From Okamejei kenojei (Eukaryota), in contig CM069167.1 of NCBI GenBank assembly GCA_035221665.1, forward strand, positions 18,166,001 to 18,230,000: a stretch of 64,000 nucleotides of DNA. The letters are read 5' to 3'. The notes below the pieces were generated by a model, which was not told the origin of the DNA, made no database searches, and worked only from the letters and a program-made list of their open reading frames with translations. The translations under genes were made by a program, and so were the position numbers. Shown here in pieces: positions 1-64,000 of the stretch; position 1 is the stretch's first letter, and each line of letters opens with the position of its first letter.

Positions 1-113
1 TGCCTGTGACAGTGAAGTGAAGTTTACTGCTGGGAGAATGATTTACAGGGGATACTATTGGGGCATGTCATTGCTCTGTGAGCCAGCACAGGCTCAATGG
101 GCCAAATAGCCTC

Positions 114-1232
114 ATAAGATCATAAGTGATGGGAGTAGAATTAGGCCATTTGGCCCATCAAGTCTACTCCGCCATTCAATCATGGCTGATCTATCTCCCC
201 CTCCTAACCCCATTCTCCTGAACTAATTCCCTAGCCTTCTCCCCATAACCTCTGACACCCGTACTAATCAACAATCTATCAATGCCTTAAACATATCCAC
301 TGACTTTGCCTCCACAGCCATATGTGGCAAAGAATTGAACAGATTCACCAAGAGTTGAAGTTGAAGTGAGTTTATTGTCAAGTGTCCCTGATAGGACAAT
401 GACATTCTTGCTTTGCTTCAGCACAACAGAACATAGTAGGCACGGCTACAGAACAGATCAGTGTGTCCATATACCATTATATAAATATATACACATATGA
501 ATAAACAAACTGATCAAGTGCAAATAAACAGATAATGGTTATTAATGATCAGAGTTTTGTTTCAGCCAGGTTTAATAGCCTGATGGCTGTGGGGAAGTAG
601 CTATTCCTGAACCTGGTCGTTGCAGTCCTCAGGGTCCTGTACCTTCTACCTGAAGGTAGCAGGGAGATGAGTGTGTGGCCAGGGTGGTGTGGGTCCCTGA
701 TGATGCTGCCAGCCTTTTTGAGGCAGCGACTGTGGTAGATCCCCTCGATGGAAGGAAGGTCAGAGCCGATGATGGACTGGGCAGTGTTTACTACGTTTGG
801 AGGTCTTTTCCTCTCCAGGGCGCTCAAGTTGCCGAACCAGGCCATGATGCAACTGGTCAGCAAGCTCTCTACTGTGCACCTGTAGAAGTTAGAGAGAGTC
901 CTCCTTGACAGACCGACTCTCCGTAATCTTCTCAGGAAGTAGAGGCGCTGATGAGCTTTCTTAATAATTGCATCTGTGTTCTCGGACCAGGAAAGATCTT
1001 CACAGATGTGCACGCCCAGGAATTTGAAGCTCTTGACCCTTTCAACCATCGACCCGTTGATGTAAAGGGGATTGTGGGTCCCCATCCTACCTCTTGCAAA
1101 GTCCACAATCAGTTCCTTGGTTTTGCTGGTGTTGGGGGCCAGGTTATTGTGCTGGCACCACCCTCTGACTAAAGAAATTCCTCCACATCTCCTTCCTAGA
1201 AGAACACCTTTTAATTCTGAGGCTGACCTCTA
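114..1232 (-). mobile_element. CR1 LINE 3' end, split by a Rex/Babar insertion (pieces 114-350 and 1156-1232)
   Basis: Antisense CR1 3' UTR motifs (ccattcaatcatggctgatcta, cctccacagcc...agattcacca|ccctctgactaaag) shared with many other copies in the window. Confidence 0.8.
351..1155 (-). mobile_element. Rex1/Babar-clade non-LTR retrotransposon, 5'-truncated (RT C-terminus)
   Basis: ORF 549-1106: KKAHQRLYFLRRL...FYRCTVES...HPGHTLISLLPSGRRYR...RFRNSYFPTAIRLLN; (CTTCAA)n-like tail near 352-370; CACCA duplicated at 346-350 and 1156-1160. Confidence 0.85.
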
Positions 1233-19084: not shown

Positions 19085-20029
19085 TCATAGGCTGAAGCCT
19101 CGGGCCTCGGAATCTGGCCGGCCTCCAGCCAAAGCAGGACACCTGCCGCTCAACTCTGGGCGGGTCCCCCTCGCTATCTCCGTCTCCGCCCGCCACCCGT
19201 GTCCGTGACCGTGTCCGTGTGTGTGTCCGTGACCGTGTCCGTGTGTGTGTCCGTGTCCGTGTCCGTGTGTGTGTCCGTGACCGTGTGTGTGTCCGTGTCC
19301 GTGTCCGTGTGTGTGTCCGTGTGTGTGTCCGTGTGTGTGTCCGTGACCCCGTACCTCCTGTTGTGTGTCCGTGTCCGTGTCCGTGTGTGTGTCCGTGTCC
19401 GTGAGTGTGTGTCCGTGTGTGTGTGACCGTGTCCGTTCCGTGTCCCGTGTGTGTGTGTCCGTGTCCGTGTGTGTGTCCGTGTCCGTGTGTCCGTGTCCGT
19501 GACCGTGTCCGTGTCCGTGACCGTGTCCGTCCGTGACCGTGTCCGTGTGCGTGTGTTCCGTGTCCCGTGTGTGTCCGGTCCGTGACCGTGTGTGTCCGTG
19601 TGTGTGTCCGGACCGTGTCCGTGTGTGTGTCCGTGTCCGTGTCCGTGTGTGTGTCCGTGTCCGTGTGTGTGTCCGTGTCCGTGTCCGTGTGTGTGTCCGT
19701 GTGTGTGTCCGTGTCCGTGTGTGTGTGTCCTGTCCGTGTGTGTGTCCGTGTCCGTGTGTGTGTCCGTGTCCGTGTCCGTGTGTGTGTCCGTGTGTGTGTC
19801 CGTGTGTGTGTCCGTGTGTGTGTCCATGTCCGTGTGTGTGTCCGTGTCCGTGTCCGTGTGTGTGTCCGTGTCCGTGTGTGTGTCCGTGTCCGTGTCCGTG
19901 TCCGTGTGTGTGTCCGTGACCGTGTCCGTGTCCGTGTCCGTGTCCGTGTCCGTGACCGTGTCCGTGTCCGTGACTGTGTCCGTGTCCGTGTCCGGGCCGC
20001 CGGGTCTCCGCTCTCCGCTCGCTCCTCAT
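19085..20029 (-). CDS. Possible low-complexity His/Gly/Thr-rich protein (repeat-encoded ORF)
   Basis: ATG in a GC-rich context (ggcggATG) just downstream of promoter motifs; a GT-AG intron at 19075-19005 and AATAAA at 18937-18932 follow. The repeat lacks stops, so the ORF alone is weak evidence. Confidence 0.3.
   Translation of the reverse strand: MRSERRAETRRPGHGHGHSHGHGHGHGHGHGHGHGHGHGHTHGHGHGHGHTHGHGHTHGHGHGHTHGHGHTHGHTHGHTHGHTHGHGHGHTHGHGHTHGQDTHTRTRTHTRTHTRTRTRTHTRTRTHTRTRTRTHTRTRSGHTHGHTRSRTGHTRDTEHTHTDTVTDGHGHGHGHGHGHGHTDTDTHTDTDTHTRDTERTRSHTHGHTLTDTDTHTDTDTDTQQEVRGHGHTHGHTHGHTHGHGHGHTHGHGHTHGHGHGHTHGHGHGHTHGHGHGHGWRAETEIARGTRPELSGRCPALAGGRPDSEARGFSL
19199..19992. repeat. Compound microsatellite of GTCCGT/GTGT/GACCGT units (~800 bp)
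   Basis: Directly visible. Confidence 0.97.
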
Positions 20030-20160
20030 CCGCCGGCACGGCCGGCCGCCTTACACATGCGCACTGCCACGGCAACTGGTCGGCGCTGGGCACTTTCTCC
20101 CTCGCTTTGAATTGTGGGAGATCTGGCCGCCATCGCTGTGTGCTCGCCGCGACCACTGAA
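19993..20160 (-). promoter_or_regulatory. CpG-island promoter with NRF1-like and RFX X-box-like motifs
   Basis: High CpG density; catgcgca (~20056-20063) next to ctgccacggcaac (~20064-20076). Confidence 0.5.
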
Positions 20161-22399: not shown

Positions 22400-23456
22400 G
22401 ACAAAAATGCTGGAGAAACTCAGCGGGTGAGGCTGCATCTATGGAGCAAATGAAATAGGCGACGTTTCAGGTCGAGACCCTTCTTCAGACTGATGTGAGG
22501 GTGGGGGGGGACGGGAAGAAGAAAGGAAGAGGCGGAGACAGTGGGCTGAGGGAGAGCTGGGAAGGAGAGGAGAAAGCAGGGACTACCTGAAATTGAAAAG
22601 TCAATGTTCATACCTGTTAGGTACTTCCCCCCTCTTCTGGTGAATGCTATGTACTTAACTCTTCTGTTTTCTCTCCTGAGTGCAGGCCCCATGGCTGGAG
22701 TCAGGAATCAAGGGGTTAAGGGCTCCTGTACCCGATTGGCCAAGCTGCGTCAGGTGACGAGTGACTCATCTGAAAGCTTAAATACCAGAATCTTCCAGAA
22801 TTCTCCTCTCTTTCATCGATCCTGGCTCGTGAGCAGGTTGCTGGTGTGAGCTGCAGGAGGCCTGGCCACATGGCATAGAACTCTGCGTATTATTACCTAC
22901 ATTTGTCAATTAATATTGAATTGGGACGGATAAGGCTGACCTGAGGGTTTTTCGTGTATTTTGTTTAAGGGTTATATTTCCATTTAGGCAGGTTAGAGAA
23001 CTCTAGTTCGACGGCCCATTGCAGAGGCTGGCTGGAGCACTGTTATCTTTGTTTTATTAGTTTAATTCTTGTCCTTGACTGGGTTTTGTTTGAATCAGTT
23101 TGAGTTTTAATTAAATAAAAGACAATTTTCCTTGAACTTGAGGGTACACAAAAAGCTGGAGAAACTCAGCGGGTGCAGCAGCATCTAAGGAGCGAAGGAG
23201 ATAGGCGACGTTTCGGGTCGAGACCCTTTCTTCAGACTTGAGCCTGGATTTTTACTATATTACGCGGCTCTGAAGTACCTGCATTCGAGAGTCGTAACAA
23301 TAACCCCGTGGGGTGCAAAGTTCCCAAGCAAAATATGAGGTGCTGCTCCTCCAATTTACGGTGGGCCTCACTCTGGCCATGGAAGAGGTCCAGGACAGAA
23401 AGGACGGATTCGGAATGGGAGGGGGTGTTGAAGTGCTGAGCCACTGGGAGATCAGG
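22400..23456 (-). mobile_element. Penelope-like element fragment (GIY-YIG C-terminus plus tail), split by a solo LTR
   Basis: AQHFNTPSHSESVLSVL...RKLEEQHLIFCLGTLHP; tail with hammerhead core at 22458-22491. Confidence 0.8.
22615..23299 (+). mobile_element. Solo LTR, itself containing a Penelope tail at ~23141-23237
   Basis: TGTTA...TAACA termini; ~5-bp duplication atacc/ataac; CCAAT-like (gattgg), TGCGTCA, TGACTCA, TTAAATA and AATAAA motifs. Confidence 0.7.
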
Positions 23457-23502
23457 TTCTCGGCCTTTTGGCTAAGATCAAGTGTAGTATCTGTTCTTAT
23501 CA
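23457..23502 (+). ncRNA. U2 snRNA 5' fragment (nt 6-51) fused to the 5' end of a Keno-like element
   Basis: ttctcggccttttggctaagatcaagtgtagtatctgttcttatca matches vertebrate U2 as recalled, including the branch-point recognition sequence GTAGTA. Confidence 0.95.
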
Positions 23503-25517
23503 TAGATATTCCAGGACGAGTGTTTGAGTGAAAGAGACTATCTGTTCTTATCAGAACAATTCTGGCGGTCCCTTGGGGACAAGGGCCATGGATTGCGGAG
23601 CAAAATCGAGGCTTAGAGGTGGATCCATGCTGGTTGGGAAACCAACCTAACACCTTAATCAGCCACAATGTCAGTAGGAGCAGGAGTACAGGGTATTCGG
23701 AAATACCCTGCGAATAAGCGTCAAAGGACCTCAGCAAGGGGACCCCCCCTTCTCACGAGACCTGTTCATGAAGAAGGTCTTGCTAGAGGCCTGCAAATTT
23801 GAGGCCAAGGACATCTACTGCCTCCAGGATCTCCCGGGTAACGGATATTTTGATGTTACCTTCAAGTATCCGACGGGATGGCAGAAGGTGATGGAAGACT
23901 TCCGGGAGAGGGGGAATGAAGCTCCGCTGTCGCTGCTGAAAGTGCAGCCGCTCTTCACCCTCCCCACCCAGAAGGAAAGGTTGATCACGGTGCACATGTT
24001 CAACCCACATGAGCTCGTAATGGATGTCCTCACCTTCCTTGCTCGCTAGGTTGAGGGAACAGGGAACTGTGTGGACATGAAGGACCTGCACGGGATTTGG
24101 ACCAGCAAGCGGCAAGTCAAGGTAAAGCCGAGGGTGGACAAGGACGGAGAAATCATCCACGCTCTCTCGGTTTTCGCGATTGGAGGAAACCGAGGATACT
24201 TGAGCTATGTGGGACAACCCAGGCTGTGCAGGAAATGCAACAAGCCTGGGCATGTGATGGCCCAATGCACTGCAGTTGTCTGCAAAAACTGCAAGATGGA
24301 GGTCCATGAGACAAAGGACTGTCAGGCCAGCAAGAACTGCAACCTGTGCGGGGAGGCAGGCCACCTTTACAGGGCTTGCCCTAAAAGAGCCTGCACCTAC
24401 GCACAGGCGACAAGAGGGGCTGCTGCCAGCACCCCCAAGGTGGGCGAGACACCCTCCACCACTGCCAAGACCCCAGCAGAAAGAGGGAACACGGATGAGG
24501 ACAGCCCAACCACCTCGAGGCCCCAAGTGCCAGAAGGAGACGCCCAGCATCCTGCCTAGGAGGGAGAGTCGATGGAGGAGGGGGAACAGCAGGAGAAATG
24601 GACAACGGTGAAGTACAAGAAGAGGGGTCAGCCCAAACAGCCGAGGCCGGAAAGGAGTGGTAAGTCCAAAAGTAAACCCCAAAAAAGGTCTCTTTCTCTT
24701 ACACAAGGCAACAACCTCTCCTCCTCGTCGGAGGATGAGGCGACCGGGAAGTCCCAACGAGGGAGGCAGAGGAAGAAAACGGGGGAGGAAAAGAGAGAGG
24801 CCACGACGATCACCTCCCAGCCTCAAGAGACCAAGAGCAGAGAGGTGGCCGAGAGGCTCCAGCCCCAGGACATCGGGAGCAGTGCAGCGGTCAAAGGGCT
24901 CCAGCCCCAGGACATCGGGAGCAGCGCAGTGGTCGAGGGTTTCCAGCCCCTGGAGACAGGGATCATCACAGAGGCCATTGGGCCCCAGCTACGGGAGACC
25001 GGAGTGCAGCGGCCATTGGGCCCCAGCTACAGGAGACAAAGGAAGCGGCATGCCCAAAAGGGGGTGGAACGAGAAGGCCCCCCACCAACGACACCTTTGG
25101 TTACGCCACCTGAAACTCACCTCACCGCTGGATTCCTGAGCCCAGGAAAGCTGAGGCAATTCACCGAAGCGGTGGGAATGAGGGGACATGGAAATGGTCA
25201 GTGACTCTAAAGACAATGGAGCTCAAACTGGCATCTTTAAACGTGCGCAGTATAAAGAGCACTGTGCGATGTGCTAATGCCTTACAGTACCTGGCCAAGG
25301 TCAAGGCAGATGTGACTTTTCTTCAGGAGTGCGGGCTGCCACACCTCCGCTGTTATCGGAGGTGGTCGCGATGGTGGCCCCGCGGACTGTTGGTGTGGTC
25401 GGGGGGAAATGACTGTCGTGCTTCCGGCCTGGGGATTTTGCTGCGGGGAGGGAACTTCGCCATCACTGAGGTCAGGGAAGTGGTTGGAGGGCGTCTCCTC
25501 GTGGTGGATGTTATGTA

Positions 25518-27284
25518 AGCATATAACCATATAACCATATAACAATTACAGCACGGAAACAGGCCCTCTCGGCCCTTCCAGTCCGTGCCGACCATTTGTT
25601 TTCCCCTAATCCCATCTACCTGCACTCAGACCATACCCCTCCATTCCCTTCACGTCCATATACCTATCCACTTTACTCTTAAATGTTAAAAAATCGATCC
25701 TGCCTCCACCACTTCTGCTGGAAGCTGATTCCACACAGCCACCACCCTCTGAGTAAAGAAGTTCCCCCTCACGTTACCCCGAAAACCTCTGACCCTGAAT
25801 TCTCATGTCATGCCCTCTTGTTTGAATCTTCCTACCTCAATGGGAAAGACGTATCCACGTCAACTCTGTCTATCCCTTTCATCATTTTAAAGACCTCAAT
25901 CAAGTCCCCCCCCCCTTAACCTTCTGCGCTCCAAAGAATATAACGACCTAACTTGTTCAAAACCTTTCTCTGTAACCATAGTTGCTGGAACCCTGGCAAT
26001 AAACATTCTAGTAAATCTCCTCTGTACTCTCTCTCTATTTTGTTGACATCCTTCCTAATAACTAGGAGGCGAACCAAAATTGTACACCATACTCCAGAAT
26101 TGGTCTTACCAATGCCTTGTCATACAATTTAACTATTACTATCCCTACTCCTATATTCAATAGCTCTGATTTATATAGCCAGCACACCAAAGGCTTTCTT
26201 TAACCACCTACCTACATGCGATTCCACCTTCAGCGGAACTATGCACAGTTTATTCCTAGATCCCTCTGTTCCACAAGCATTCCTCAATTCCCAACCATTT
26301 ACCATGTACGTCCTATTTTGATTTGTCCTGCCAAGATGTAGGCACTTCACCACTTATCAGCATTAAACTCCATCTGCCATCTTCAGCCCACTTTTTCCAA
26401 ATGGCCCAAATCTCTTTGTAGTCTTTGAAAATCTACTTCATTATCCACAACACCACCTATTGTAGTATCATCTGCATACTTACTTATCCAATTTTCCACC
26501 CCAACATCCAGATCATTGATGTACATGACAAACAACAGTGGACCAACACGACAGATCCTGAGGCACCCCACTGGTTCACCTCGGCTTCCAACCTGACAAA
26601 CAGCCATCCACCATTACTCTCTGACATCTCCCATTCAGCCACTGTTGAATCCATCTTGCTACTACCGCCATTAACACACCCAAAGATTGAACCTTCTTAA
26701 CCAAACCTCCATGGGGAAACCCCCCCCCGCCCTTGTCAAGGCCTTACTGAAATCCATATAGACAACATCCACTGCTTTAACCCTCATCAATTTCCCTAGT
26801 TTACCGCTTCAAAAAATTCAAGAAGGCTTTGTCAAACATGACCTTCCAGGCACAAATCCACGTTGACTGTTCCTTATCAGAACCCTGTTTTATCCAGATG
26901 CTTATAAGATTATCCCTAATATCCTTTCCATTAATTTGCCCCACCACTGACGTCAAACTAATAGGTCTATAATTGCAGGTTTATTCTTTGAAACCCTTTT
27001 TAAACAATGGAACAACATGCGCAGTACGCCCAATCCTCCGGCACTATTCCCGTTTTCTAATGACAATTGAAATATTTCTGTCATAGCTCCTGCTATTTCT
27101 ACACTAACTTCCCTCAATGTCCTAGGGAATATCCTGTCAGGAGACCTGGAGACTTATCCACTTTATATTTTTTCAAATGTGTCAGTACTTTCCTCCTCTT
27201 TGAATCTCATAGTTTCCATAGCTACACTTTTTTCTTCCCCTTAACTCACACCGAGTTTCAATATCCTTCTCCTTGGTGAATACC
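25518..27284 (-). mobile_element. CR1 LINE inserted in the Keno ORF2 endonuclease
   Basis: KYADDT RT motif; (GGTTATAT)n tail; ATGTA duplication at 25513-25517 and 27285-27289; Keno coding sequence (VDVMYRGSPL) resumes after it. Confidence 0.9.
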
Positions 27285-29679
27285 ATGTACCCGTGGCTCT
27301 CCCGCTCTCGCTGATAAATGTTATGCCTCACCCACGCAGAGCGAACGCTGGCCATTCTCCAGCAGCTCCCAGTGCTGCTGGCCACGTCCCGGCAGCTCGT
27401 TCTGGCCGTGACTTCAACTGCATCATTGAATGCGGCTGGACGATCCGGCAAGTGCCGACAGCGACTGGACCGCACGTCCAAAGTTCCCTGATGGCATGGT
27501 AAAAGACGCAAAGCTGCGCGACGCCTTCATCGACCCTGCAGGCGGGTCCCAGCCGCGTTCATCTGGTCCGAGATCGACGGTTTAGCTCGATCTCGGATAG
27601 ACTTCGTCTTCATGTGAAGGCTGTCACGGTGAGAGACACCGACCTCACGCCAGTGTTCTTCTCCGACCACTGCCTCCTTCAGGCTATCCTGTCACCCTAC
27701 AGGAGGAACCGGAAGGCAGGCAGAGGGACGAGGAAGTTAAACGTGAAGCTGTTGACCCCAGAGAATGTCGAGGAACTAAAGAGGGACTACACATGTTGGA
27801 GAACGGGTGAGGCCCCTCTTGATTCCCCCCCCACACTCTGGTGGGAAGCAACCAAGGAGAACATTAAGAGGTTCTTCATAATTAAAGGGTTCAGAGAGCA
27901 AGACAGAGCCAGAGGGAATTGTGCCAACTCCAGACAGATTTGCAACAACTGCTCCTTCTGCAGTCGAGCGGGGTGGATGTGAGGGAGGAACTTAGAGAGT
28001 TGAAGGACCGGCAAGCTCAGCTCTTCACCTCTGAATCTCTCCAAGATCATCTTCCGATCCAGAGTCCGCCATGTGGAGCAGGATGAGACTGCTCACGTTT
28101 CTTCTCCATGAGGTGCACAGGGGGAGCTCTGTGATGAACAGCCTTGGGGAGGAGACTGGCACTGTAGCATCCTCACAGAACAGACAGCTGAGGATCTGCA
28201 AATCCTTTTACACAGATTTATGTATGACCAAAAGACCACAGACAGTACCTCCTCCCAGAAGTTCCTGTCCTCGATCACAGGAGGTCTTGGAGGACAGCTA
28301 GCGGGAGAGTCTGGACCACCACTGACCGTAGAGGAGCGACTGGCTCCATCCGTTCCTTTGACTCGAGTAAAACTCCCGGAAGCGATTGTCTTACCGGCCG
28401 AGTTGTATTTGGCTCTGTGGGACTGGATGGGCCCCTGACCTGCCAGAAGTGTACAACGACATGCTTCTAGCTGGTAGCATGTCAAGACTCCATAAGAAGG
28501 GCAACATCACCCTAATCTAGCAGAAGGGGAGATGAAGGACAATCATAAAGAATTGGAGACCCATAACACTCCTTGAAGTAGACTACAAGATCCTGTCTAA
28601 GGCCATCGCCAACCGGTCAAGTCTGCTCTGGGACAGGTGATCCACCCGGACCAAACCTGTGCTTTACCTGGCAGGAAAATCTCGGACAGCCTAGCGCTGC
28701 TGAGAGATACATCGCCTACTTGCAGGACAGAAGGTGGATGCCTGCCTATTCAGCTTGGACCAGAGAAGGCCTTCAACAGTATTTCGCACACAGTACATGA
28801 GGGACGTGCTCTCCAAAATGGGTTTTGGGGATGAATCAGGAATTGGATCAAACTGCTCTACACCAACATCCGTAGTGCCAGTCCAAATCAATGGGTGGGA
28901 ATCAGACAGTTTCCCTGTGGTCTGGAGTCAGGCAGGGTTGCCCTCTCTCTCTCCTGTCTTGTTTGTCTGCTGTAATTGAACCCTTGCCGAATCCATCAGG
29001 AGTAAGGATGCGAGCACAAGAGGAGTGACATTGCCAGGCAGTGGGGGCATTCAAAGTAAAAACCCTCCCTGTACATGGACAATGTCGCTATCTTCTGCTC
29101 GGATCCAGGGTCGGTCCGCATACTGATTATGTAGTTTGTGCGATCAGTTGAGTCCCGCCACGGGAGCCGGGTTGAATCGCGGAGGAGAGAGGCCCCCCAA
29201 AGATCTCCGTCCCCTTCACCTCAAGCCTGACATGAAGGTGCTTGGGGGAACTGGTTCGGGGGGGCTGAGGCGTGTAACAAGAATTGCTGGAGCTGATAGC
29301 CAGGGTGGGGAGGAAGCTGGAGCTGTGGAGGCAACGCTCACTCATCCATAACGGGAAAGAATATTTTGTCATCAGGTGAGAGGTGCCCTCGGGGCTGCTG
29401 TACTTGGCACAAGTTGGCATCTTCTCCCTCCCTCCTATGCCACAGGGATCACACGGGCTGTCTTTCAGTTAATCTGGGGGTCGATGAAAGACCGGGTGCA
29501 ACGGGCCACAATGTACAAGTCAACAGACAGCGGGGGTAAAAGCGTGCCCAACGTCGCCCTCACCCTGATGGCCACCTTCGTGTGTGGCTGCATCAGACGG
29601 AGTGTAGAGCCAAGGCACGTGGGCACCAAGTGTCACTACCTGCTGAGGTTCTACCTGTCCCCGGTGTTGCGAAGTATGG

Positions 29680-29761
29680 ATGATCAGCCATGATCATATT
29701 GAATGGCGGTGCAGGCTCGAAGGGCTGAATGGCCTACTCCTGCACCTAATTTCTATGTTTC
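29680..29761 (+). mobile_element. Ultra-truncated CR1 3' tail inserted in Keno ORF2
   Basis: gatcagccatgatcatattgaatggcggtgc...ttctatgtttctatg flanked by TATGG. Confidence 0.8.
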
Positions 29762-30567
29762 TATGGGCCTGGCGCAGATGCCACGCAATGTGCCAGCCAC
29801 CTGTGGTCTGTGGAAATGGTTCCTTCCGGACCAACCCTTTGGACCACATGTCCATTGGGCAGTGGACAGCACATGTGAAGTTCCTGCACCGTCGGAACCT
29901 CACTGCCAGCGCACGCTGCCCTCGGAGGGCTGCTATGGAGAGGAGACGGTTGTCCACTCCTTTTGCAGAGTGTTGGATTTGCTAAAAGAGTCTGGAGGGT
30001 CCCCCTGGTACCCGTTTATCCCGAACAACAGCTCCGTCACAGAGGACCTCTGTGATTTACGGACTGTTCCCATGTACAACTTCAGATACTGACATTCGAG
30101 TGCTGCTGGAGGGTCTCAACCGGTGAAAGACGCCCTTTGGTCTGCCGAGTCATTGTTTTTCAACGTCACCCAGCAGAGCGAGATGTCCGTCAGGGAATGT
30201 TGCCGACTGCTCGCTGCAGAATGCAGGAGTACGTGCTGATGGACGCACTGAAGCTCGGTGCAGCCAACGCCAAGGCTCGGTGGTGGGAGGGCCACAGTCT
30301 CATAGGGTCCTTCCGCTGCTGGACATGGGGGGGTACGGTATGGTGGAGACGCCCTCAAAATAAGGGTAAGGTATCCCACGCCAGTGTGCCACATGAGGGG
30401 CACGGGTGGGGGGACCAACATTTGTGAAATTTGGGGAAAAGAAATGTATAACTGTATTGAACAATTTGTATAGCCTCCAAAAATGTCGGATGGATTTTCC
30501 GCAAGTATTAACATTAATTGTATTATTTATCATTTGAATAAAGTCTATTTTGAAATTTTAAAAAAAG

Positions 30568-31920
30568 TCCATGATGTTTTCTAGAGCCACTTCCTTAAGT
30601 ACCCTGGGATGCAGACCATCATGCCCTTGGAGATTATCAGCCTTCAGTCCCATCAGTTTATTCAACACCATTTCCTGCCGGATGTGAATTTCCGTCATTC
30701 CTCCTCCGTTACGCTAGATCGGGACGTGGGAACCTTTTTACGTTGGAATGTTGCATTAAGTTAGCTGTAATCTAATAAGGCCGCCATCCAAGAAACTTCA
30801 ATTAGAATAACATTCAAATGTATATAAACATTATTTGGTAAAATCTACCTACCTACCTACTAACTTCAAAAAGTGAAAAAAAGTTTGTTCATTCTAAAAG
30901 TTTAAACTGTCAATGACTTTGTTTGTGACTGCTTTCTAGAGTCTTGAGTCGCATTAGAACTAAATCATGAGCATAACGGGTGTTAAAATAGCCCTCATGA
31001 CTTACTAAACGTTTTAAATTGTGGCCGTCAGTCGGGAGGATTTTGTTGAATCTTACTTTTATTCTTGGTATTTTAAATACGTTCATTTAAGATAAAAATC
31101 ATAAAAGATGAATAAAAAACATTAATAAAAATAAAAGGATTTGTTCTCAAACAAAATTTGGATTCATTCGAAAAGGCCGCACTTAATGGCCTAGAAGGCC
31201 GCATAACGGCTTTAAGGCCGCAGTTCCCCATCCCTGCCCTAGATCCTCTAGCCACTAGTACATCGGGAGATTGTTTGTGTCCTCCTTGAGTGAAGATGGA
31301 TCCAAAGTACCTGTTCAACTCGTCTACCATTTCCTTGTTCCCCCATAATAAATTCACCTGTTTCAGTCTTCAAGGGTCCAACTTTGTCTTTAACTAATGT
31401 ATTTCCGCTTCACAATCCTAAACAAGCTTTTACTATCCTCCCTTTATATTCTTGGCGAGCTTTACCTTCGTTACCTCATACTTTTCTCCCCGTAATTGCC
31501 TTTTTAGTTATCTTCTGTTGCTCTTTAAACGTTCTCAATCCGCTGGCTTCCCGCTCATCTTTGCTATGTTATACTTCTCTTTATTTTTATTACGTGCCCT
31601 GACATACCCTTGTCAGCCACAGTTCGCCCCTTACTCCCCTTGGAATCTTTCTTCCTCTTTGGAAATAACTGATCCTGAACCTTCTGTATTATTTCCCAGA
31701 AATACCTGTCATTGTTGTCCCTGCTGGGTATCTTTCCAGTCAACTTTGGCCCCAGCTCCTCCCTCATGGCTCTTGGCATAATCCCCTTTGTTCAATTGTA
31801 ATACTGATACTTCTGATTTTTCCCTTCTCCCTCTCAAATTGTAAGATTAAAACTTATATATTTATGGTCACTACCTATGTTCCTTTACCTCGAATTTCCT
31901 TATCAAATCCAGTTCATTAT
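30568..31920 (-). mobile_element. CR1 ORF2 internal fragment, split by a hAT MITE
   Basis: NKEMVDELNRYFGSIFT; gccacttccttaagtaccctgggatg motif. Confidence 0.8.
30720..31236. mobile_element. Non-autonomous hAT (Charlie-like) DNA transposon
   Basis: Ends cgggacgtgggaac / gttccccatccctg; 8-bp TSD cgctagat / ccctagat centred on TAG; aaggccgc subterminal repeats. Confidence 0.75.
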
Positions 31921-42429: not shown

Positions 42430-44640
42430 GAAGGGAGACACAGAATGCTGGAGTAACTCAGTGGGTCAGGCAGCATCTCTGGGAGAGGTAATAGGTGACG
42501 TTTTGGGTGAGACCTCTCAGACCCTTCATTGATTGTATCAGGGGGAGGGGGCGTGACAAAGATAGATGTAGTTGGAGACATTGGTGGGGAGAACTGGGAA
42601 CTGGGGAGGGGATGGAGAGGGAAAGCAAGGGCAATCTGAAGTTAGAGAAGTTACTAAGTTTTAAGAAGGAACTGCAGATGCTGGAGAATCGAGGGTACAC
42701 AAAAAGCTGGAGAAACTCAGCGGGTGCAGCAGCATCTAAGGAGCGAAGGAGATAGGCGACGTTTCGGGTCGAGACCCTTCTTCAGACTGGTCAGGGATCA
42801 GGGAAACGAGAGATATAGACGGTGATGTGGAGAGATAAGGACCAATGAATTAAAGATATGCAAAAAAGTATCAATGATAAAGGGAACAAGCCTGAAAGGA
42901 ACTCCTGACCGACATCCACTACAACCTACTGACTCACAGCTACCTGGATACTCTTCCTCCCACCCTGCTTCCTGTAAGGACTCCATCCCCTATTCCCAAT
43001 TTCCTCCGTCTACGCGCATCTGATCCAGGATGAGGTGTTCCACACCAGGTCATCACAAATGGCCTCATTCTTCAGAGAACGGGGGATTCCCCTCCCCCCA
43101 CTATTGATGTGGCTCGCACCAGGGTCTCCTCCATACCCCGCAACACTGCCCTCGCTCCCCATTCCCCACTCGCAAACAGGGCAGAGTCCCCTGGTCCTCA
43201 CCTTTCACCCACCAGCCGGCAAATACAACATATAGTCCTCCGCAGTTTCGCACCTCCAAAGTGACCCCTCCACCCGCACATCTTCCCATCTCCCCCCCCT
43301 GTCTGCCTTCCGCAAAGACCACTCCCTCCGCAACTCCCTTGTCAATTCTTCCCTCCCCTCCCACTCTACCCTTCCCGGGCACTTTCCCTTGCAACCGCAA
43401 GAAATGCAACACTTGTCCCTTCACCTCCCCTCCACACCTTTCAGGGACCCAAGCAGTCCTTCCAGGTCCGACAGAGGTTCACCTGCACCTCCTCCAACCT
43501 CATCTACTGCATGCCGCTGCTCCAGATACCAGTATGATCTATATCGGTGGACCAAGCGGAGGCTTGGCGATCGCTTCGCCGAACACCTCCGCTCGGTCCG
43601 CAATAACCAACCCGACCTCCCGGTGGTCAGCACTTCAACTCCCCCTCCCATTCCACATCCGACCTCTCGGTCCTGGGCCTCCTCCACGGCCAGAGTGAGC
43701 AACCGAAGCTGAGGAACAGCACCTCATATTCCGCTTGGGGAGTGCATCCTTTGGGCTTGAACATTGAATTTTCTCAATTCTGTTAACGCTTGCTGTCTCC
43801 TCCCCTTCCCACTCTCCCTCAGCCCTCGGGCCCTGGCATTCCCTCTATCTCTATCTCCCTCCCCCCCCAGTCGCACCAGCTTCTCTTTCACAACAAACAG
43901 CTTACAATGGCTTGTTCCCTTTATCATTGATTACTTTTTTGCATATCTTTTTTTCATTGTTACCTTATCTCTCAACATCACCGTCTATATCTCTCGTTTC
44001 GCTGATCCCTGACCAGTTGAAGAAGGGTCTCGACCCGAAACGTCGCCTATCTCTTCGCTCCTTAGATGCTGCTGAACCCGCTGAGATTCTCCAGTTTTTT
44101 GTGTACCCTTAGAGAAGTTCTGTTCACACCACTGGGGTGTAACACCCAAGCTAAAATATGAGGTGCTCTTCTCCAATTTGCACTGGGCCTCACTCTGACA
44201 ATGGAGGAGACCAGGACAGAAACATCAGATTGGGAATGGGAGGGGTATTGAAGTGCTGAACCACCGGGAGATCAGGTATGTTAAGACAGACTGAGTGGAG
44301 GTGTTCAGCGAAACGATTGCCGAGCCTGTGCTTGGTCTTGGCCGATGTAGTGAAGTTGACACCTGGAACAGTGGACACAGTAGATGAGGTTGGAGGAAGT
44401 GCAAGTGAACCTCTGGCCTCACCTGGAAAGGCTGTTTGTGTCCTTGGATGGAGTCGAGGGGGGAAGTAAGGGACAGGTGTTTGCATCTCCTGCAGTTGAA
44501 GGGAACGTACCAGGGGAGGCGGTGGTTTGGGTGGGGAAGGGACGAGTTGAGACCCCCAGGGAGTTCCATCAGAGGGAATAGGTCTCTCAGGAAAGCAGAA
44601 AGGGGAGGAGATGGGAAGAATGTGGCCAGTAGTGGGATCC
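42430..44640. mobile_element. Nested Penelope-like elements: a + copy (~42655-44108) with inverted terminal tails inside a - copy
   Basis: GIY-YIG remnants (YIG..KRRLGDRFAEHLRSV; KHRLGNRFAEHLHSV); tails at 42690-42890 and 43900-44108 are inverted; ttagagaagtt duplicated on both flanks. Confidence 0.85.
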
Positions 44641-45266
44641 CGTTCATTGTTTATTGTTGTCTCTGTGTTTTAAAGCCAATATAAATGTGATGTACTTTTG
44701 ACTTTGGGAGATTCTACCGAGAGAGTGTTCATTAGAATGTGTGTTTCTCTTTTACATTCAACCAGCTTCAGCCACTGAGTGACTCTGTTCAAAGGGCACA
44801 ACAAAAAGCTGATTAGTTAAATTTCTTCAGCAGTAGTTGAAACTCTATGCCTACGTGGTTAAGATTTTATGTTCCAAAAATAATTGATTCATTTGAGGGA
44901 GAGCAGGAACATTGGAGAGGTAGTGAAAGATACCCAAGATGGATTTTGAACTTTAAATAATGAAGGTAGTTTGCTAAACAGCGGTGTGTTGTGGGGATTC
45001 TCTGAAACGGATGTCAACCGATTCAACAATTTGACCATTCAGCATTTAAATTAGTATATCTTCAGTAAGCCTGCGACTCTATCCCAATCTACATACAAAG
45101 TTAGTTATGTTTATAAAACTAGCTGTTCTTCTTGGTCAAAACACAAGGTTAAATCAAGCACTGAGCTAGTCTTGAATGAAAAGTTTATCTTCTCTGGACC
45201 ACTCGTGACCATTATTTATTGGGTGCTTCTAATTGTGCCTCAGCATTTTCCCAAACATTGAACGCC

Positions 45267-45478
45267 CTGCAGCGGCTGAGAGGCTCCAGTCCCTGGGGTC
45301 CGGGATCATCGCAGCGGCCGATGGGGCCCAGCTCCGGGCGACCGGGAGCAGTGAATCAGCCGCCGTACCCAACTACAGGAGACAGAGAAAGCGGCACACC
45401 GAGATTGGGGGTGGAACGAGTAGGCCCCCCCACCCCAACGACATCTTCGGTTACGCCGCAGGAAAACCCACCTTGTTG
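45267..45478 (+). mobile_element. Keno-like ORF1 C-terminal fragment (second copy)
   Basis: AAERLQSLGSGII...NYRRQRKRH, similar to 24840-25130. Confidence 0.8.
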
Positions 45479-46018
45479 AGGATGCCGGCACCAATTCACA
45501 AGAACTGATCCTGAGCCTATAGAACATTGGAAAATTATCACCAATGCATCCACGATTTCTTGAGCCACTTCCTTAAGTACCCTGGGATGCTGAACACCGG
45601 GCCCTGGGGATTCATCAGCCTTCAGTCCCATCAGGTCTATCCAAACTCCATTTCCTGCCTAATGTGGATTTCCTTCAGTTCTTCTGTCACCCAGACTATA
45701 CTACTATATCACTACTTACTATATCAGGAAGATTGTTTGTGTCCTCCTTAGTGAAGACAGATCCAAAGTACCTGTTCAACTCATCTGCCACTTCCTTGTT
45801 GAATGCTTTCACCGAGGATCTAGTGGGAGGGAGGAACTGAAGGGAATCCACCTCCTGAGAAAGTAGGGAGGGAGAGAAAAAACGGGGAATTATAGACCAG
45901 TTAGCCTTACATCCGAAGTGGGGAAGGTGCTTGAGATCATTAATAAAGATTTAATAGCAGCGCATTTGGTAAGCAGCGACAGGATCGGTCTAAGTCAGTA
46001 CGGATTTATGATGGGGAA

Positions 46019-46768
46019 TGTTGTGTATGAGATTATGATTAGCATATTGGAATGTCTTGCGCAATTGTACGCATGCGCACAGAGACTCAAGATGGCGGAG
46101 TTCAACACCAGGATATTGTTAAGTACCTGTGTGTTCCGAGTCTTATTTAAGTCCTTTTCCAGCACCAATACATAACAATTTGGCGACGAGGATGGCGATT
46201 CCGTTAGCGGAACAGAATTGTTGTTGTTTTGAGGCTTTTCTCAAGATGGACAGAAAGTGAAAGACACGTATGTTTTTGGCACGCAAAAAGTTGGAACGGG
46301 AACGCACGATCGCCAGGCAACAAGCAGTGCTGTGGCGGGGCTGCGCAGCTAGAAGTAGCAGCCTAGCAAGCTGAACAACCGACGGTGGTTGCTTACCTTA
46401 AACGCTTTCCAGTGCCATGCAGCCCACGGCCAAGTCCAGAAACCGCCACCGACGTCGAGTGAGTGTCCAGTGCCGTGCAGCCCACGGCCGAACCACCACC
46501 AACGACGAGAAGCCGAGTCTCCGAGTGCCAGCGCCGGTGATAACGGGGGGACACATCGGTAAGCGGTGCAGCCCGTGAAGCCAGCGACGCCAGCCCGTGA
46601 GGACAGCCCGAGAAGTCACCGATGCACCGGAGTCCAGAGACAGTCAAGTTGGACCGGTTAATTAATCGTAACAAAAGCTGGACTTTACGAATTAAATGTA
46701 TTGTTCATTGATAACAATAATTAAGAGGATATATGAACAAAGTCCGTTTCCAGCACCAGTACATAACA
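46019..46768 (+). mobile_element. Internally deleted Gypsy-type LTR element inserted in CR1 (paralog 60880-61639)
   Basis: TG...CA LTR 46019-46177; PBS tggcgacgagg at 46181; 3' end repeats tccagcaccagtacataaca; GGAAA-type 5-bp TSD. Confidence 0.8.
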
Positions 46769-46908
46769 GGAAATCATGCTTGAATTTTTTTTCTGGAATA
46801 ATCTTCTGGAATTTTTTGAGGAAGTGCAATGGATAAGGGAGAACCAGTGGATGTGGTATATCTGGACTTCCAAAAAGCCTTTGACAAGGTCCCATTCAAG
46901 AGATTTTA

Positions 46909-48045
46909 TTTCGGAGTCACGTGAGTGACTACGTGAGGTCCCCGCCAGCACGCATGCGCGACATATCGTCTACCGCATTGCGCATCGACAGGGTGTGGAA
47001 GCGCTGCTCCATCAGCGGTAAGTTTGAATCCTGAAGGTACGTTTTTTCAGCTTAACTCCAGGTCTACCTTTCTCTTGCAAGAAGCTCTGATTCAAGAGTT
47101 CCTGTGGAGTTATCACGGATTCCCCTACACTGCGGGGAAATCCCTGGGGGGGGGGGGGGGGGACACCACCACAGGACTTCGCGGGGAATTCCGTCTCCAG
47201 GGACAGTGTTGGGAATCCCGCCCGCGGGGACCGCGGGAAGATTCTCCACGGGATGAACCCGGCTGCGTGGACCGTGGGGAGTAGCCAAACCAGGGGGTGA
47301 ACCCGACTGCAGGGACCACGGGAAGGCAAACTGCGGGGTGAACCCGGCTCGGGGAAATCCGACCGCGGGGGCCGCGTGTTAAAACACAAGCTGCGGGATG
47401 AACCCGGCTGCGGGGACCGCAGGAAGACAAACCGCGGCATGAACCCGGCTCGGGGAAACCCGGCCGCAGGTACCGCGTGAGGCCTGCGGCGAGGGGACCG
47501 TGTGAAGACACGGCTGCGGACTGCAGAAGTGCCGATAGCCGGCGGCATTTTTTCAGACTCCAGCGGCAATAGAGTCTGAAAGACCTGGGCAGGCCAGGAG
47601 GGTCCCCTCCAACATGGGAATGTCCTCGGCCGTTTATCCATGAGGAGCATGGATAGCGTCAGAGAGCGCTCATCCCACCAATGCTCCCTCCTGATATGAT
47701 CCATGTATGGCATATCAGTAGAGATATACCGCCGACGGTAAGCCCAGGAGACCTTTCAGGGTTCCGGGCTGCGAATATATCGCGGCGGACGAACCCGTAA
47801 ACTCGGAGGGTCGGGGGGCTCTAAGGTGCACGCCTGTGGAGGGAATTTCCGCAGACGGATAAACCCGGGAGACCCAGGCTGGAAGGTCACCGTCTTCGTA
47901 TACCGCATGAAGCGAAAGAATGACTCGGAAGTATGTCCAGGGAACGTACTGGAGTACAAGCGTGAGGTTCCAAAAATTCTGGCATGGCATCAAGACCTTC
48001 GCTAACGAAAGAAACCTGAAGGCCAGAGTTCCCTCATGAAGGAGC
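46909..48045 (+). mobile_element. DIRS-type retrotransposon 5'/ORF1 fragment with an internal ~35-bp GC-rich tandem repeat
   Basis: Colinear with the start of the DIRS at 61775; gaacccggct/ccgcggg repeat at 47220-47480. Confidence 0.7.
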
Positions 48046-48050
48046 ACCAC

Positions 48051-48755
48051 GGATGCGACGGGGCACAATGTACAACTCAGCAGACAACGGGGGTAAAAGC
48101 GTGCCCCGGGACGGTGCTGCTATGGAGAGGAGACGTTTGCCCACTTCTTTACAGGAGTGTGGGTTTGCTAAAAGAGTCTGGAGGAAAAAATTGCAAGGGT
48201 CCCTGAGATACACTTTATCACTCCGAACCCCCCCCCCCAGCTCCGTCACAAGAGGACTCGATGATTTACGGACTGTTCCAGGGACACATTCAGAGGCTGA
48301 ATCGCGTGCTGCTAGAGGGTCATCAACTCGGGTTAAAGACGCCCTTTGGTCTGCTCGTGCATTGTTCACCACCCAGCAGAGCGAGATGTCCGTCGGGGAA
48401 TGTTGCCGACTGGCCCGCTGCAGACTGCAGGAGTACGTGCTGAGGGACGCACTGATAGCTCGGTGCAGCCAAGCCAAAGCTCGGTGGGGGAAGGCAACGG
48501 TCTAAGGTCCTTCCGCTGCTGGACATGGGGGGTACGGTATGGTGGAGACGCCCCTCAAGAAGGTATCCCACGCCATTGTGGCACGAGTTTATAGGGGGGA
48601 CTGATTTGTGGTAATTTTGGTGGGGAAAAGAAATGTTCTCAACTGTATTGATCTATTGGACAGCCTCCGGAAAAATGTCGGATGGATTTTCCGCAAGGTT
48701 CCTTGTATTGATATATTGGTCATTGATAATAAAGTATATTTTGAAATTTAAAAAA
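48051..48755 (+). mobile_element. Keno-like 3' end (second copy) inserted in a U2 gene
   Basis: Similar to 29495-30567 (MY.S.D.GGKSVP; VKDALWSAR; CCRLARCRLQEYVLRDAL); AATAAA and A-tail directly abut U2 nt ~36. Confidence 0.92.
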
Positions 48756-48910
48756 GTATCTGTTTTATAGTTTAATATCTGATGGGTCCCTTATTAGATA
48801 AGGACCATATATTAAATTGATTTTTGGAACAGGGAGATGGAATAGGGGCTTGCTCCGCCACTCCACGCATCGACCCAGTATTGCAGTGCCTCTGGGTAAC
48901 GGTGCACCTC
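48756..48910 (+). ncRNA. RNU2: U2 snRNA gene, 3' part (nt ~36 to end), disrupted by the Keno insertion
   Basis: gtatctg..tttaatatctgat; Sm site AUUUUUG at 48820-48826; stem III ggagatggaatagg.gcttgctcc; stem IV loop tattgcagt; ends ggtgcacc. Confidence 0.95.
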
Positions 48911-48930
48911 CCTTTTGGGAGATTTTCAAA

Positions 48931-48945
48931 GTTTAAAAGAAAAGA
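48931..48945 (+). promoter_or_regulatory. snRNA 3' box (Integrator processing signal)
   Basis: gtttaaaagaaaaga fits GTTTN0-3AAARNNAGA, ~20 nt after the U2 3' end. Confidence 0.7.
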
Positions 48946-50838
48946 TCATCGTGCTTCCATAAAGGTGCGTGTTTGCCTGCGAGCTCCAATCACTGTGTGT
49001 GTGTGTGTGTGTGTGTAGTTGACGGGACCGTCAAGTAGCGTGCCTTCTTTTATTTTCAAGGAAAAGAGGAAGATGCCGCGCTCGCATTTCAACCCAATTC
49101 AACTGAAACTTCCAGGAAGGAGAAAAATAATTTTTCAGCAAAATGTTCAAAAGCCACAATTACGGTTCTGCAATCAAGTCGCCACCACATCGGGGGTGAA
49201 CGTCGGCGCCTGAGGTCATGACAAGGCGGCCGCACTTTGTGGATTGTCACGAGCCAAGTTTAAGGTGAGGGAAGGAGAGGCAGACAAGCGGGGGCTGGTT
49301 GTGGAGGTTGGCAAGTTGCTCTGGAAAGAAATCTCTCACGAGCTGCATGAAGTCTTCAAGGAATTAATGGTGAGCCAAAGAAAAAGAGGAGAAGGGAAAA
49401 GGAAAAAGGAAGGAAAAAGAGAAAGCATCATGTTCGGGCTACGGGACCTGTGTTCCTGTGCCCAGTGGGAGTGTGCTTCTATTGCAAAATTTAATAATAA
49501 TAATAATAATAATAATATCTTTTATTGTCCATTACACATAAGTGCAACGAGATGAGGTTTGCAACTTCCAGTCCGATGTCATAGTTTGTGTTGAGAGAGA
49601 TGTTGAAGCGAGAGCCAGTGGACTTTCAAAAAAAGGCCGTTGACAAGGTCCCACACAAGAGATTACTGTGCAAAATTCGAGCATATGGTATTGGGGGTAG
49701 CAGCTGGCCTGTACAAAGCTTTTCAAAAAGGGGGGTGGCATGACAGGATTTATGTATGTGCGTTCGCACATCACGAGCGCAAAAGTCCCCTCAATGCGGG
49801 GTCCCGGGGTCAGGGCCCTAAAGCTCAGGAGTTTTAGATGCTCCCTGATTGCAGTCTGAGCCTTATTTTGGAGCATTTCTGCACAAATTTATGACCAATA
49901 TTCCAGAAATTAAAAGGAATATGAGGTAATTTTTTCACACAAAGGGTGCTGGGTGTATGGAAGAGCTGCCAGAGGAGGTAGTTAAGGGCTGGGACTTATC
50001 CTAATGTTTAAGAGACATTTGGACACGTACATGAATAGGACAGGTTTAGATGGATATGGACAAATAAGTTGTGGTGAGGTCGGACATGTTGGTCGGAGGT
50101 GTGGGCAAGTTGGGCTGAAGGGCAAGTTTCCACATTGCATCATTCTATGACTAAAAAGTTAAGAAGAAAAAATGCATGTAGATATGTAGATTTGAAATTA
50201 AATGAGTGAAATGTAAAGGCAGAGAGGTTTTTGGGTGGAAAGGAACATAGGGGTAGGGACGTGGAGAACACTTTGGATAGGTGACATTTCACAGAGTGCT
50301 AGGAGTTAACTCAGTGGGTCAGGCAGCATCGCTGGAGAAATCACGAGGTCCGGAGCCGGGTCATGGAGCCAGGTGTGTGGTCGGAGTAGAGACGGGGCCG
50401 GGAATCAGTAATCCGACATATCCCCTCCCACACCCCCTCCCCCTTTTCCCCCCACAACCTCCCATATAACCTCCTCTCCCCCACTACACCCCTCTCCAAA
50501 CCACAGAACCCCCCCCCCCCCCCCCTCCCTCACATACCACCCCATCCACACAAGCTCCCTACCCACAACCCCCCCCCCCCCAAACCCACAACCTCCTCCC
50601 CCTCAACCCCCACCTGCCCCCTATCCCCGCCCTCCCCACAGCCCCCCGTCGTAAATGAAAAAATGTTTAAAATTAAGGATGTTTCATTCTAAATATTTAT
50701 AAAAATAATTATAAATAATTTAAAACACTATTAAACATTTATGACAGAAATTGACATTGTTGCGTGAAGTCTTACTTTGAATTCAGATTACGTAGAGGTT
50801 GTTAGTGTTGCAGAGTGCGGGGCAGCCGAGCTCCAGAA

Positions 50839-50956
50839 TCACATTTTCGCTGGTTCTCCTGTGAACGGAAACACGGTAGAGGCAAGTGTATTCTGGATGG
50901 CAGTCCAGTTGCCTATTCCCGCAGTTCAGTGAATTTGTAAACGGCAGATCCTTATT
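50839..50956 (-). CDS. Terminal exon of a SUN-domain (LINC complex) protein gene, with indels
   Basis: AVYKFTELR..GNW.HPEYTCLYRV.VHGEPAKM* matches the SUN C-terminal signature NWGHPEYTCLYRFRVHGEP. Confidence 0.85.
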
Positions 50957-51409
50957 TACAAAGCAAAAAAACATGACGACAGATCAGGGAACCTGTGCTT
51001 CAGTCTGAATAAAAGTATGCAGGCAGGAGGAGAAGGTGGAATTAGCAACAAATTTCAGGCTTAAACATCCTGTTGATCGTGGATTTCAGGACATTCTACT
51101 CAATTACATTCAGCATTGATAACAAGCATTTTATCACGGAAAAGGTCGATGATTTACAGAGGTATAAGAGGAACATGGATCTCAAATTACAGCAGGAAAT
51201 ATGGGAGCAACAACTTTATTCCATGTTAGCATCGTGGATGGGGATGAGAGAACATGCTTACTTACACAGGCTTGAAAATAAACTCTATTCTGGAAAGATA
51301 AAATGATGGAGTAAACTCAGTGGGTCAGGCAGCATTCCTTGGACCTGCCTGACCTGCTGATTTACTCCAGCATTTTGCCTTCTTTCCTCGGGTAAACCAG
51401 CATCTGCAG

Positions 51410-61774: not shown

Positions 61775-64000
61775 TTTCGGAACAGTCACGTGAGTGACTA
61801 CGTGAATGTCCTCGGCCATTGATCCAATGTGGGGCTTGGATAGCGTCTGTGAGCGCTCTTTCCGACCAATGTTCCCTCCTGATATGATCCATGTATGGCA
61901 TATCGTAGAGATATGCAGACCGACGGTAAGCCCAGAGACTTTCAGGGTCCGGGCCTGCTGAATATATCGCGGCGGGACGAGCCGTGACGAGTGGGTACGG
62001 GCTCTAAGGTTGCACCGCTGCGGAGGAATGTCCCGCAGGACTGATAACCCCGGAGACCCAGGCTGGTAGTCACCGTCTTCGTATACCGCAATTGATGCGA
62101 AAGGACTCGGAAGTTTGTCCAGGGGAACGTACTGGAGTACAAGCGTGGGTTCAGAAATTCTGGCATGGCTCAAGACCTTCGTAGGAAAGGAAACCTGGAA
62201 GGCCAGAGTTCACTCATGAAGGAGGCATTACGTCCATCACGCCATCAGAGATGCCGGCGGTGGGATACCATGCACCTGCAAAATTTGATTCCTGAAAGGA
62301 CCAGCAGTGAACAACGCTATGTGGGGGTTCAATGCACACTTCAAAATGAACTGCTTCCAGAAGAACGCCATCGGACCTGCTTAAATTCCAAATCTACCAG
62401 TTCAACTGAGGCCAGCAATGTCCAGCCGCCGATCCCTCTTCAGGAACCTGCCAACAGGTTACGACCCGGATGAAGAGTTTAAAGCTGATCCAGCTTCGCA
62501 AGGTACTACAAGCATCAACCCCCACGCCGCTATCGACAGCAAGTTTCACTGAAGCTGGTGGCCAGCTTCCAAACTGGGCCGAGGGTCCTCAGGGAATTAG
62601 GGTCCAAGCACCCCCACAATCCTAAGCTGGGACGGAATTAGAACCCGCACCTGGGGCCTTTGGGCTTACCACAAGACACGACAATAAGCACGAAGGTAGG
62701 TGGGGTAGCGGTTGCTTTCCGAATATATGAGGTTGTGGGACCATTTGCAAGTTGGTAAATTTACACTTGTTTTTATGCAAGATGAGAGTTACCTTTTAAG
62801 ACAGGCCGCAGTTTACGGGCCGCTCATTGTCACAGTGGAAAGATACCGTTCAACTCAGCACATATAAGGCAGTGTTCGACTTTTCTGAATAGAAAAACTT
62901 TCATTGCTGTCTCACAACAGGTGTGACAGTTTGTCCACTCACTGGGCTCACCGAGATATTTGAAATTTAGCTGCGATGGAAACAGTGGTTACAGTCAAAA
63001 GCATTGCAAAAATGGGCCAAACGGTCAGCCCCAAGCTATCTACCAAAGTACTAAAACCAGTGCTCGGCTGCTATAAACCAAGCTATATTATGGCTATCTG
63101 GATGATGTTCTAAAGTGTTGTATTTTACCAAATCAGCGGTTATCAGCCACAGACTCAGACTATCGTGCAGAAATTAGATTCTCATCCATCCAGTTAAATT
63201 TAAGTTGATGCCAACTGAAACTATTGAGTATTAGGATGACCTTTAACTCTATTAAATTATCTGGATTGGCAATATAATTGGGTTTCAGCTATGCTACTTG
63301 CGCCTCTGCACCATCAGAGCTGTACGGCGTGCAAAGGAGCCAGCTCACAGTTACCACGTAGGCATTACTTCAGACCTATGCTATTCCAGCTGAAACTATC
63401 AAAGTTACCATGGTGGACAAACATTATTCAGCATTGCCCCACTAACCTTCTCAGTACTTCGTCAGTTTAATTACTAACTGATTGCTGTTTGCTTAAAGAT
63501 GGATAATTACTAAATTACCATTTTAGTTACGGAGGCGGGATGGGGTTTGCATGAGACTACCAAATATTCAGTTTATTATTCACACTAGGTTGCATTCTGT
63601 GGATTAAATGGTTTGTGCAAATATGCAAAATCTGCATGCTCCAGAAGTCTAACTTGATACACTCTGGTGCTATTAAATGTTAACAAATGGGTGCATATCA
63701 AGTCAAAGGATCCGGTTAATAGTTTATCTTACTTATTCGGCATTGGCGTATCATCGGTTAGGTAAACGCAATGATAACACAGGAATGGATGTGGAATCGC
63801 AAGTATTCAAGACATTGTGGGCTTGATGGAACACCTAAAGATCAAAAGATGTTGCATCCAGGGTCAATCGGCAGTTGCAAAAATCCATGGTGTATCAGTG
63901 GCGTGGGATGCCATTCTCGCTACACTGGGGAGAGAATGCTCATTGTGTTCCCTCCATTTTACCTTCCCGACGGTTCTTGCAAATCAAGCAATTACGCTTC
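61775..64000 (+). mobile_element. DIRS-type (tyrosine recombinase class) retrotransposon, running off the window
   Basis: Start gtcacgtgagtgactacgtga; RT-like TKVLKPVL...GYLDDV (~63040-63110); RNase H-like GWG (~63540); methyltransferase-like (F)ASRVNRQL...FPPF (~63850-63960). The recombinase itself is not seen. Confidence 0.75.

Follow-up and report, generated by a model that had tools for sequence, protein, structure and literature searches.

A Keno-like LINE joined to U2 genes of the skate Okamejei kenojei, with further junctions similarly far into U1, U3 and U4 genes

The stretch of DNA analysed here, called the window, comprises 64,000 nucleotides of Okamejei kenojei (contig C37, 18,166,001-18,230,000) and lies in a U2 gene cluster that covers ~15.2-20.5 Mb of this contig, with an intact U2 gene 14 kb beyond the window end. 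The Rfam U2 model finds U2 at both places named in a previous, sequence-only reading of this DNA, at 48736-48912 (84 bits) and at 23452-23561 (56 bits). At the first of these places, the alignment shows a 5'-truncated and internally deleted 3' fragment of a LINE (E2, 48054-48755, forward strand), ending in an A6 tail (48750-48755) that is followed directly by U2 nt 36-191 (48756-48912, forward strand, 92.5% identical to intact U2, with private indels). The junction at 48756, placed at about nt 36 in the sequence-only reading, is the published Keno site. The U2 half contains an Sm site (48820-48826) and is followed by a 3' flank (48913-49300, forward strand, assigned to flank class B by flank alignment) with a 3'-box-like motif (48931-48945); the Sm site and the 3' box had both been noted previously.

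The U2 promoter and nt 1-35 are absent upstream of 48756. The half nevertheless has the 3' box and a genomic flank common to U2 genes, without an A-tail after nt 191. When compared with the intact U2 loci, its flank aligns up through the 3' box and then switches to class B, and the class B copy L106 (16.97 Mb) retains a diverged U2 promoter together with a full-length element. These features show that the half is a real former U2 gene that was hit site-specifically by the element and not a retrocopy, as the sequence-only reading had proposed. One of the arguments used for this, the pairing-preserving changes in stems IV and IIb, does not hold. Stem IV is identical to that of the intact U2 genes of this genome, and the stem IIb form has no counterpart in the other sequences aligned, 26 in number, of which 25 are element-joined halves and one is an intact gene (from 30 loci, the 4 that lacked the anchor motif were excluded). 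The stem IIb form is accompanied by two single-base deletions near stem IIa and by other indels. The 48 kb block of the window is 94-100% identical per 250-nt bin to two aligned paralogues, which are 98-100% identical to each other. These private letters, the indels and the lower block identity make decay or an assembly/consensus error the likely origin of the stem IIb form, and the argument from compensatory changes was rejected.

Several other features are seen in the surroundings of the junction. Two spacer pieces of the U2 repeat unit (42659-44109 and 45491-46743, 93-99% identical to other units) belong to a unit (42659-46743) that is without its own intact gene and promoter, and an isolated old ORF1 fragment of the same element family (77%, forward strand) is found at 45268-45457. 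An unclassified repeat with internal short repeats occupies 46905-48053, upstream of E2, and 61804-62224; a U2 retrocopy on C5 sits within the start of the same repeat. A long tandem array of a 12/18-nt repeat is present at 19157-20050.

The second U2 piece (23457-23502, forward strand) aligns with U2 nt 6-51, in agreement with the end at nt 51 described earlier, and it is the outermost part of the head of another element, E1. It is followed by six extra bases, by a U1 remnant (~nt 45-56) with a 7-nt linker (23509-23527, forward strand) and by a full-length, degenerate Keno-like LINE (23528-30566, forward strand, 85-90% identical to the natural copy L102 in the main blocks). The linker marks a U1-headed subfamily and has 17 exact genome matches; in the tree, E1 groups with the U1-headed copies (13 rows on one side of the branch, support 95/73). 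E1 contains nested insertions at 25518-27264 and 29680-29762, aligns along an entire 5.4 kb copy and stops at 30566, where its A-tail (30560-30566) is joined to a repeat other than U2. A CR1-like repeat (30567-30700) receives the tail of E1 at a site that a dispersed copy, L121, uses as well.

Two options had been left for these pieces, independent copies or a single U2 locus drawn out over 25 kb. The latter, taken as a split through nested insertions, would account for their common strand and correct order, for a nominal overlap of 16 nt (nt 36-51) and for the contact of both with one element family, and a duplicate of the 5' half of E1 at C37:18.36 Mb (98% identical to about the middle, 92% beyond) indeed ends in a U2 half, at nt 36. 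However, this half has a class A flank, not class B, and E1 has its own A-tail on another repeat. E2 is 88-92% identical to the matching end of E1 (compared from 48102), and therefore E1 and E2 are two different copies. Neither a U2 promoter nor nt 1-5 is found before 23457. What lies there is a Penelope-like (GIY-YIG) repeat, a hot spot flanking 8 of the 40 dispersed full-length copies examined. The 48 kb block, in turn, recurs in eight paralogues. The single split locus is thus very improbable and was rejected; independent copies is the option that stands, and the U2 piece at 23457 is best described, from its arrangement, as the head of an element copy separate from the 48756 junction. The duplicate at 18.36 Mb indicates that it or E1, or both, recombined; it leaves room for an origin of the outer U2 piece of E1 inside a U2 gene and no room for its pairing with 48756.

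The overlap of the two pieces had been read as having the size of a target-site duplication. Its size does agree with that of five complete insertions in U2 (L100, L102, L097, L101 and L142, overlaps of 10, 12, 12, 14 and 14-16 nt), each with the structure promoter-U2(1..45-53)-element-U2(36/38..191), and for dispersed copies 34 out of 70 junction records show duplications of 8-22 nt, with a small number lying in simple repeats. The window pieces are not halves of one locus, though; their overlap has this size because the heads all end near nt 47-54 and the tails within U2 all lie at nt 36-38.

The fraction of interrupted U2 genes had been suggested as a measure together with the flank comparison. 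Among 54 distinct U2 3' halves, 41 are joined to the element (23 of class A and 18 of class B) and nine are intact and have a promoter, the remainder being one element-derived deletion junction and three dispersed copies without gene flanks; these counts come from the best-scoring candidates and are lower bounds. All 41 junctions are at or near nt 36-38, mostly at nt 36 or 38. No intact class B gene is present among the 54, all 18 class B halves being element-joined. The eight paralogues carry the 48 kb block together with the junction at its upstream side, which makes it likely that the 5' half of the flagged site was lost once, before the duplication. A SUN-gene exon accompanies the class B halves; it is multi-copy in the cluster and therefore a poor synteny anchor. 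In the window, this exon is the final one of a fragment of a SUN-domain gene, in a reading frame at 50786-50983 (reverse strand) co-duplicated with class B relics; this frame alone has no PF07738 match at E 0.01, and its paralogues do match. Exons of this SUN-domain gene are amplified in many partial copies with U2 relics, in the window and on C37, C21, C34 and C35, and at ten SUN loci chosen without a known U2 half no U2 was found inside the 10 kb examined. Four loci on C21 and C593 (L265, L266, L269 and L270) combine U1 upstream sequence, a short element piece and a class B U2 half, and are likely products of recombination between U1 and U2 loci.

The element family has a copy, L190, with two intact frames of 563 and 1169 aa. 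The ORF1 protein has zf-CCHC and ZCCHC3-type domains, and ORF2 has the layout of Keno, with an N-terminal APE endonuclease (PF03372), a reverse transcriptase (PF00078), PF13966 and a C-terminal zinc finger. The 49 homologues are Tx1-like, the best being unnamed or hypothetical proteins with 45-48% identity, amphibian where labelled; no named Keno sequence is among these 49. Exact signatures of the 5' and 3' ends occur 285 and 1,549 times in the genome, from which the copy number is at least 1,549. Of the first 30 exact 3' signatures, none precedes U2. Nearly all copies lie outside U2, and the family is not restricted to this gene. The Penelope-like repeat that flanks 23457 is a recurrent off-target site, adjoining three of 30 3' ends in addition to the full-length copies mentioned above, against a background of eight free copies in 786 kb. 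Within this repeat, one ~60-nt stretch is a strong hot spot, in antisense, for the element. In the window, ends of the repeat are seen at 23367-23456, 43277-43739 and 44145-44644; Pfam has no match for the window's own Penelope-like and SUN frames, and a frame related to the Penelope-like repeat matches GIY-YIG at the Pfam cut-off.

The same element is joined to three further snRNA genes. In U1, the assembly has 14 junctions: seven at nt 40, four at nt 32/33 (from one search) and three more in other stretches of sequence; 13 of these U1 halves extend to or near the gene end and its flank, and one stops at nt 114. In U3 the tail joins nt 37 (one junction), and in U4 it joins nt 34 and ~36 (two junctions, in the C16 cluster). 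In none of these junctions in U1, U3 and U4 is the element directly preceded by the 5' half of the gene. At U4 and U1, the sequence that follows the nick is a second copy of an intact gene lying shortly before it, with 98.5% identity over 1.6 kb in U4 and 98% over 0.8 kb in U1; this fits either the loss of sequence between tandem copies or a target duplication of unusual length. At C16:48.25 Mb (L362/L374), U4 from nt 33 and at least 1.6 kb of flank are duplicated on both sides of the element with this 98.5% identity, an intact gene being left upstream, possibly as a kilobase target duplication. The C33 U1 cluster (11.53-11.80 Mb, L340-L344) has eight intact-scoring U1 genes and seven element-joined U1 3' halves, and a 5.2 kb unit of intact gene, element and relic is repeated there in tandem. 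Pattern searches found no junctions with U5, U6 and U12, by a design that missed both known U4 junctions, and none among the stronger U11 matches; searches for the tail followed by U3, U5, U6 or U4 gave zero each and missed the known U3 and U4 cases, which makes these blanks weak. Full-length element heads cluster near U5 (six) and U3 (four) genes, at C8:42.0-43.3 Mb, C7:91.9-92.8 Mb and C8:94.6 Mb, most without a junction shown.

It could be supposed that a few U1, U3 and U4 events were multiplied by duplication and that the heads arose purely by template switching onto free snRNAs, without capture of a promoter. The seven junctions of the C33 cluster, five of which have one common 5' break as tandem duplicates, agree with the first part, but the U1 junctions as a whole, spread over seven contigs, fall into nine 5' structures and have three or more types of flank, and the chance expectation of any match in the target intervals concerned is ~1e-4 (1,549 ends, ~400 strand positions, 5.5e9). 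Template switching is the model proposed for crocodilian heads in the text cited from PMC4494074. Among 40 full-length copies (of the first 42 listed 5' signatures), all 40 have a head of the U1/U2-derived type, the inner head being U2 in 37 and U1 in three. Outer pieces are present on 12 of the 37 U2-headed copies (U1 in ten, U3 in two), and one U5 piece is known outside this sample. The outer U3 pieces are scattered on the body tree (75 of 85 rows kept), with six changes for six rows, as expected from template switching, and the outer U1 pieces are partly clustered (seven changes versus 9.5, 1 of 300 shuffles being as low). The type of inner head, in contrast, tracks the body tree, with 19 changes versus 43.3 when shuffled, and hence the inner heads are inherited. 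Taken as a whole, this explanation by few events and template switching is considered quite unlikely. The promoter-borne copies are among the shortest tree branches, beside dispersed copies. The outer U1 pieces of L151, L168, L176, L050 and L353 do not match the main U1 gene and have a variant sequence that may represent another type of U1.

The head does not determine the target, since a U2-headed copy (L348) lies within U1 and a copy headed by U1 and U2 (L353) within U3. The sites in U1, U2, U3 and U4 have little sequence in common, and at the dispersed sites there is no consensus except an A before the tail and G/T after it. It is conceivable, if rather unlikely, that the endonuclease, helped by open chromatin, reads some loosely defined sequence or DNA shape that these genes have by coincidence at +32 to +40. 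The strong use of a single site in U2 and the existence of a repeat hot spot without an snRNA promoter are consistent with this; so are GATCA, which precedes the U1 +40 and U2 sites by 11-12 nt and also stands before the CR1-like off-target site, and GGTT, which follows both the U1 +40 and the U4 +34 site. Of the 12 nt upstream of the CR1-like site, 11 agree with the U1 +40 site. But GATCA is absent at U4 and 19 nt away at U3, and four unrelated genes are joined at positions, counted from their start, that lie within 9 nt of each other. GATC occurs in the upstream window of seven of 34 dispersed sites, and GATCA as a general target motif was rejected on this count; a weak sequence preference may contribute to site choice.

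The explanation that is preferred, and held with considerable confidence, combines a U2 gene cut at nt 36, a separate E1 head and a proposed mechanism based on position and promoter. In this view a Keno-like Tx1 LINE cut the flagged gene at nt 36, after which the site likely lost its promoter and 5' half and was duplicated within the 5 Mb U2 cluster. Reverse transcription would be target-primed where the DNA is nicked at +36/+38, another cut being made 10-17 nt further downstream, and the element would thereby be left behind the snRNA promoter and nt 1 to ~50. Read-through from this promoter would give RNA with an snRNA 5' end, carried to new sites as the head, and further U1, U2, U3 or U5 5' pieces would likely be added by template jumps. 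With the U1 head reaching to nt 56 and the main U1 site at nt 40, the overlap is 17 nt, inside the range of the dispersed duplications, and fits a source that once resided in U1. Where the element goes within snRNA genes is probably governed by the distance from the Pol II snRNA start; we infer such positional targeting, and transcription from these promoters, from the sequence arrangements. A wider and tentative proposal, to which somewhat less than an even chance is given, is that the LINE is a parasite of the Pol II snRNA gene class as such, led by the snRNA transcription machinery to +32 to +40 of U1, U2, U3 and U4, borrowing the promoter and capturing the 5' end as its head. If true, this would account for the origin and transcription of the SINEU and Tx1-Mar heads and for the convergence of Keno and Utopia on one U2 site. 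The flagged junction alone is already known Keno biology; it is outweighed by its family context, with 41 of 54 U2 3' halves joined, nine intact, and four snRNA genes joined at a similar distance. The promoter-borne copies and the copy with two intact ORFs make the questions of snRNA targeting and SINEU transcription testable.

Dictyostelium TRE5/TRE3 and yeast Ty3 integrate in a position-specific manner at small-RNA genes of one class. R2, TRE5/TRE3 and Ty3 use Pol I or Pol III genes, whereas the Okamejei kenojei LINE is found at Pol II snRNA genes, by a mechanism that we infer. Co-transcription with the target gene, as described for R2 in 28S rDNA in the part of PMC4494074 cited here, would be a shared property. 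According to the portion of PMC4640811 (2015) used, the only snRNA-targeting elements are Keno and Utopia (U2) and the Dada DNA transposons (U1, U6), and a figure legend of PMC4494074 names U5- and 5S-targeting Tx1 families. No report of a Tx1/Keno family in U1, U3 or U4 genes was found in the literature covered; Repbase and Kojima and Fujiwara 2004 may contain such cases.

Keno is a U2-targeting family of the Tx1 clade, as cited in passages of PMC6136364, PMC4640811 and PMC4494074, and it inserts ~37 nt into U2, with the 3' target TCTGTTCTTATCAGTTTAAT in the relevant passage of PMC6136364. The skate element resembles it in having an APE endonuclease and a reverse transcriptase and in the same 3' target (nt 36 in the window), but it is not strict for U2, with ~41 of at least 1,549 copies at U2 and others at U1, U3, U4 and the Penelope-like repeat; the family is therefore classified as Keno-like. 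Utopia, in the same portion of PMC4640811, uses the same U2 site, with 5' halves often missing and intact genes upstream, much as at the U4 and U1 junctions described above, and differs by its restriction-like endonuclease, the skate element having APE at the N-terminus of ORF2. The crocodilian Tx1-Mar/SINEU elements, in the sections of PMC4494074 cited, are similar in being Keno-related Tx1 elements with U1/U2-derived heads, recurrent 5' additions and a preference for another transposon; those sections leave the transcription of SINEU open. The second target of Tx1-Mar is Mariner-N4 in those sections, whereas that of the skate family, among the flanks classified, is the Penelope-like GIY-YIG repeat. 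The skate family also differs from Tx1-Mar in carrying U3 and U5 pieces and in still filling U2 genes, such that plausible source loci of the heads are visible.
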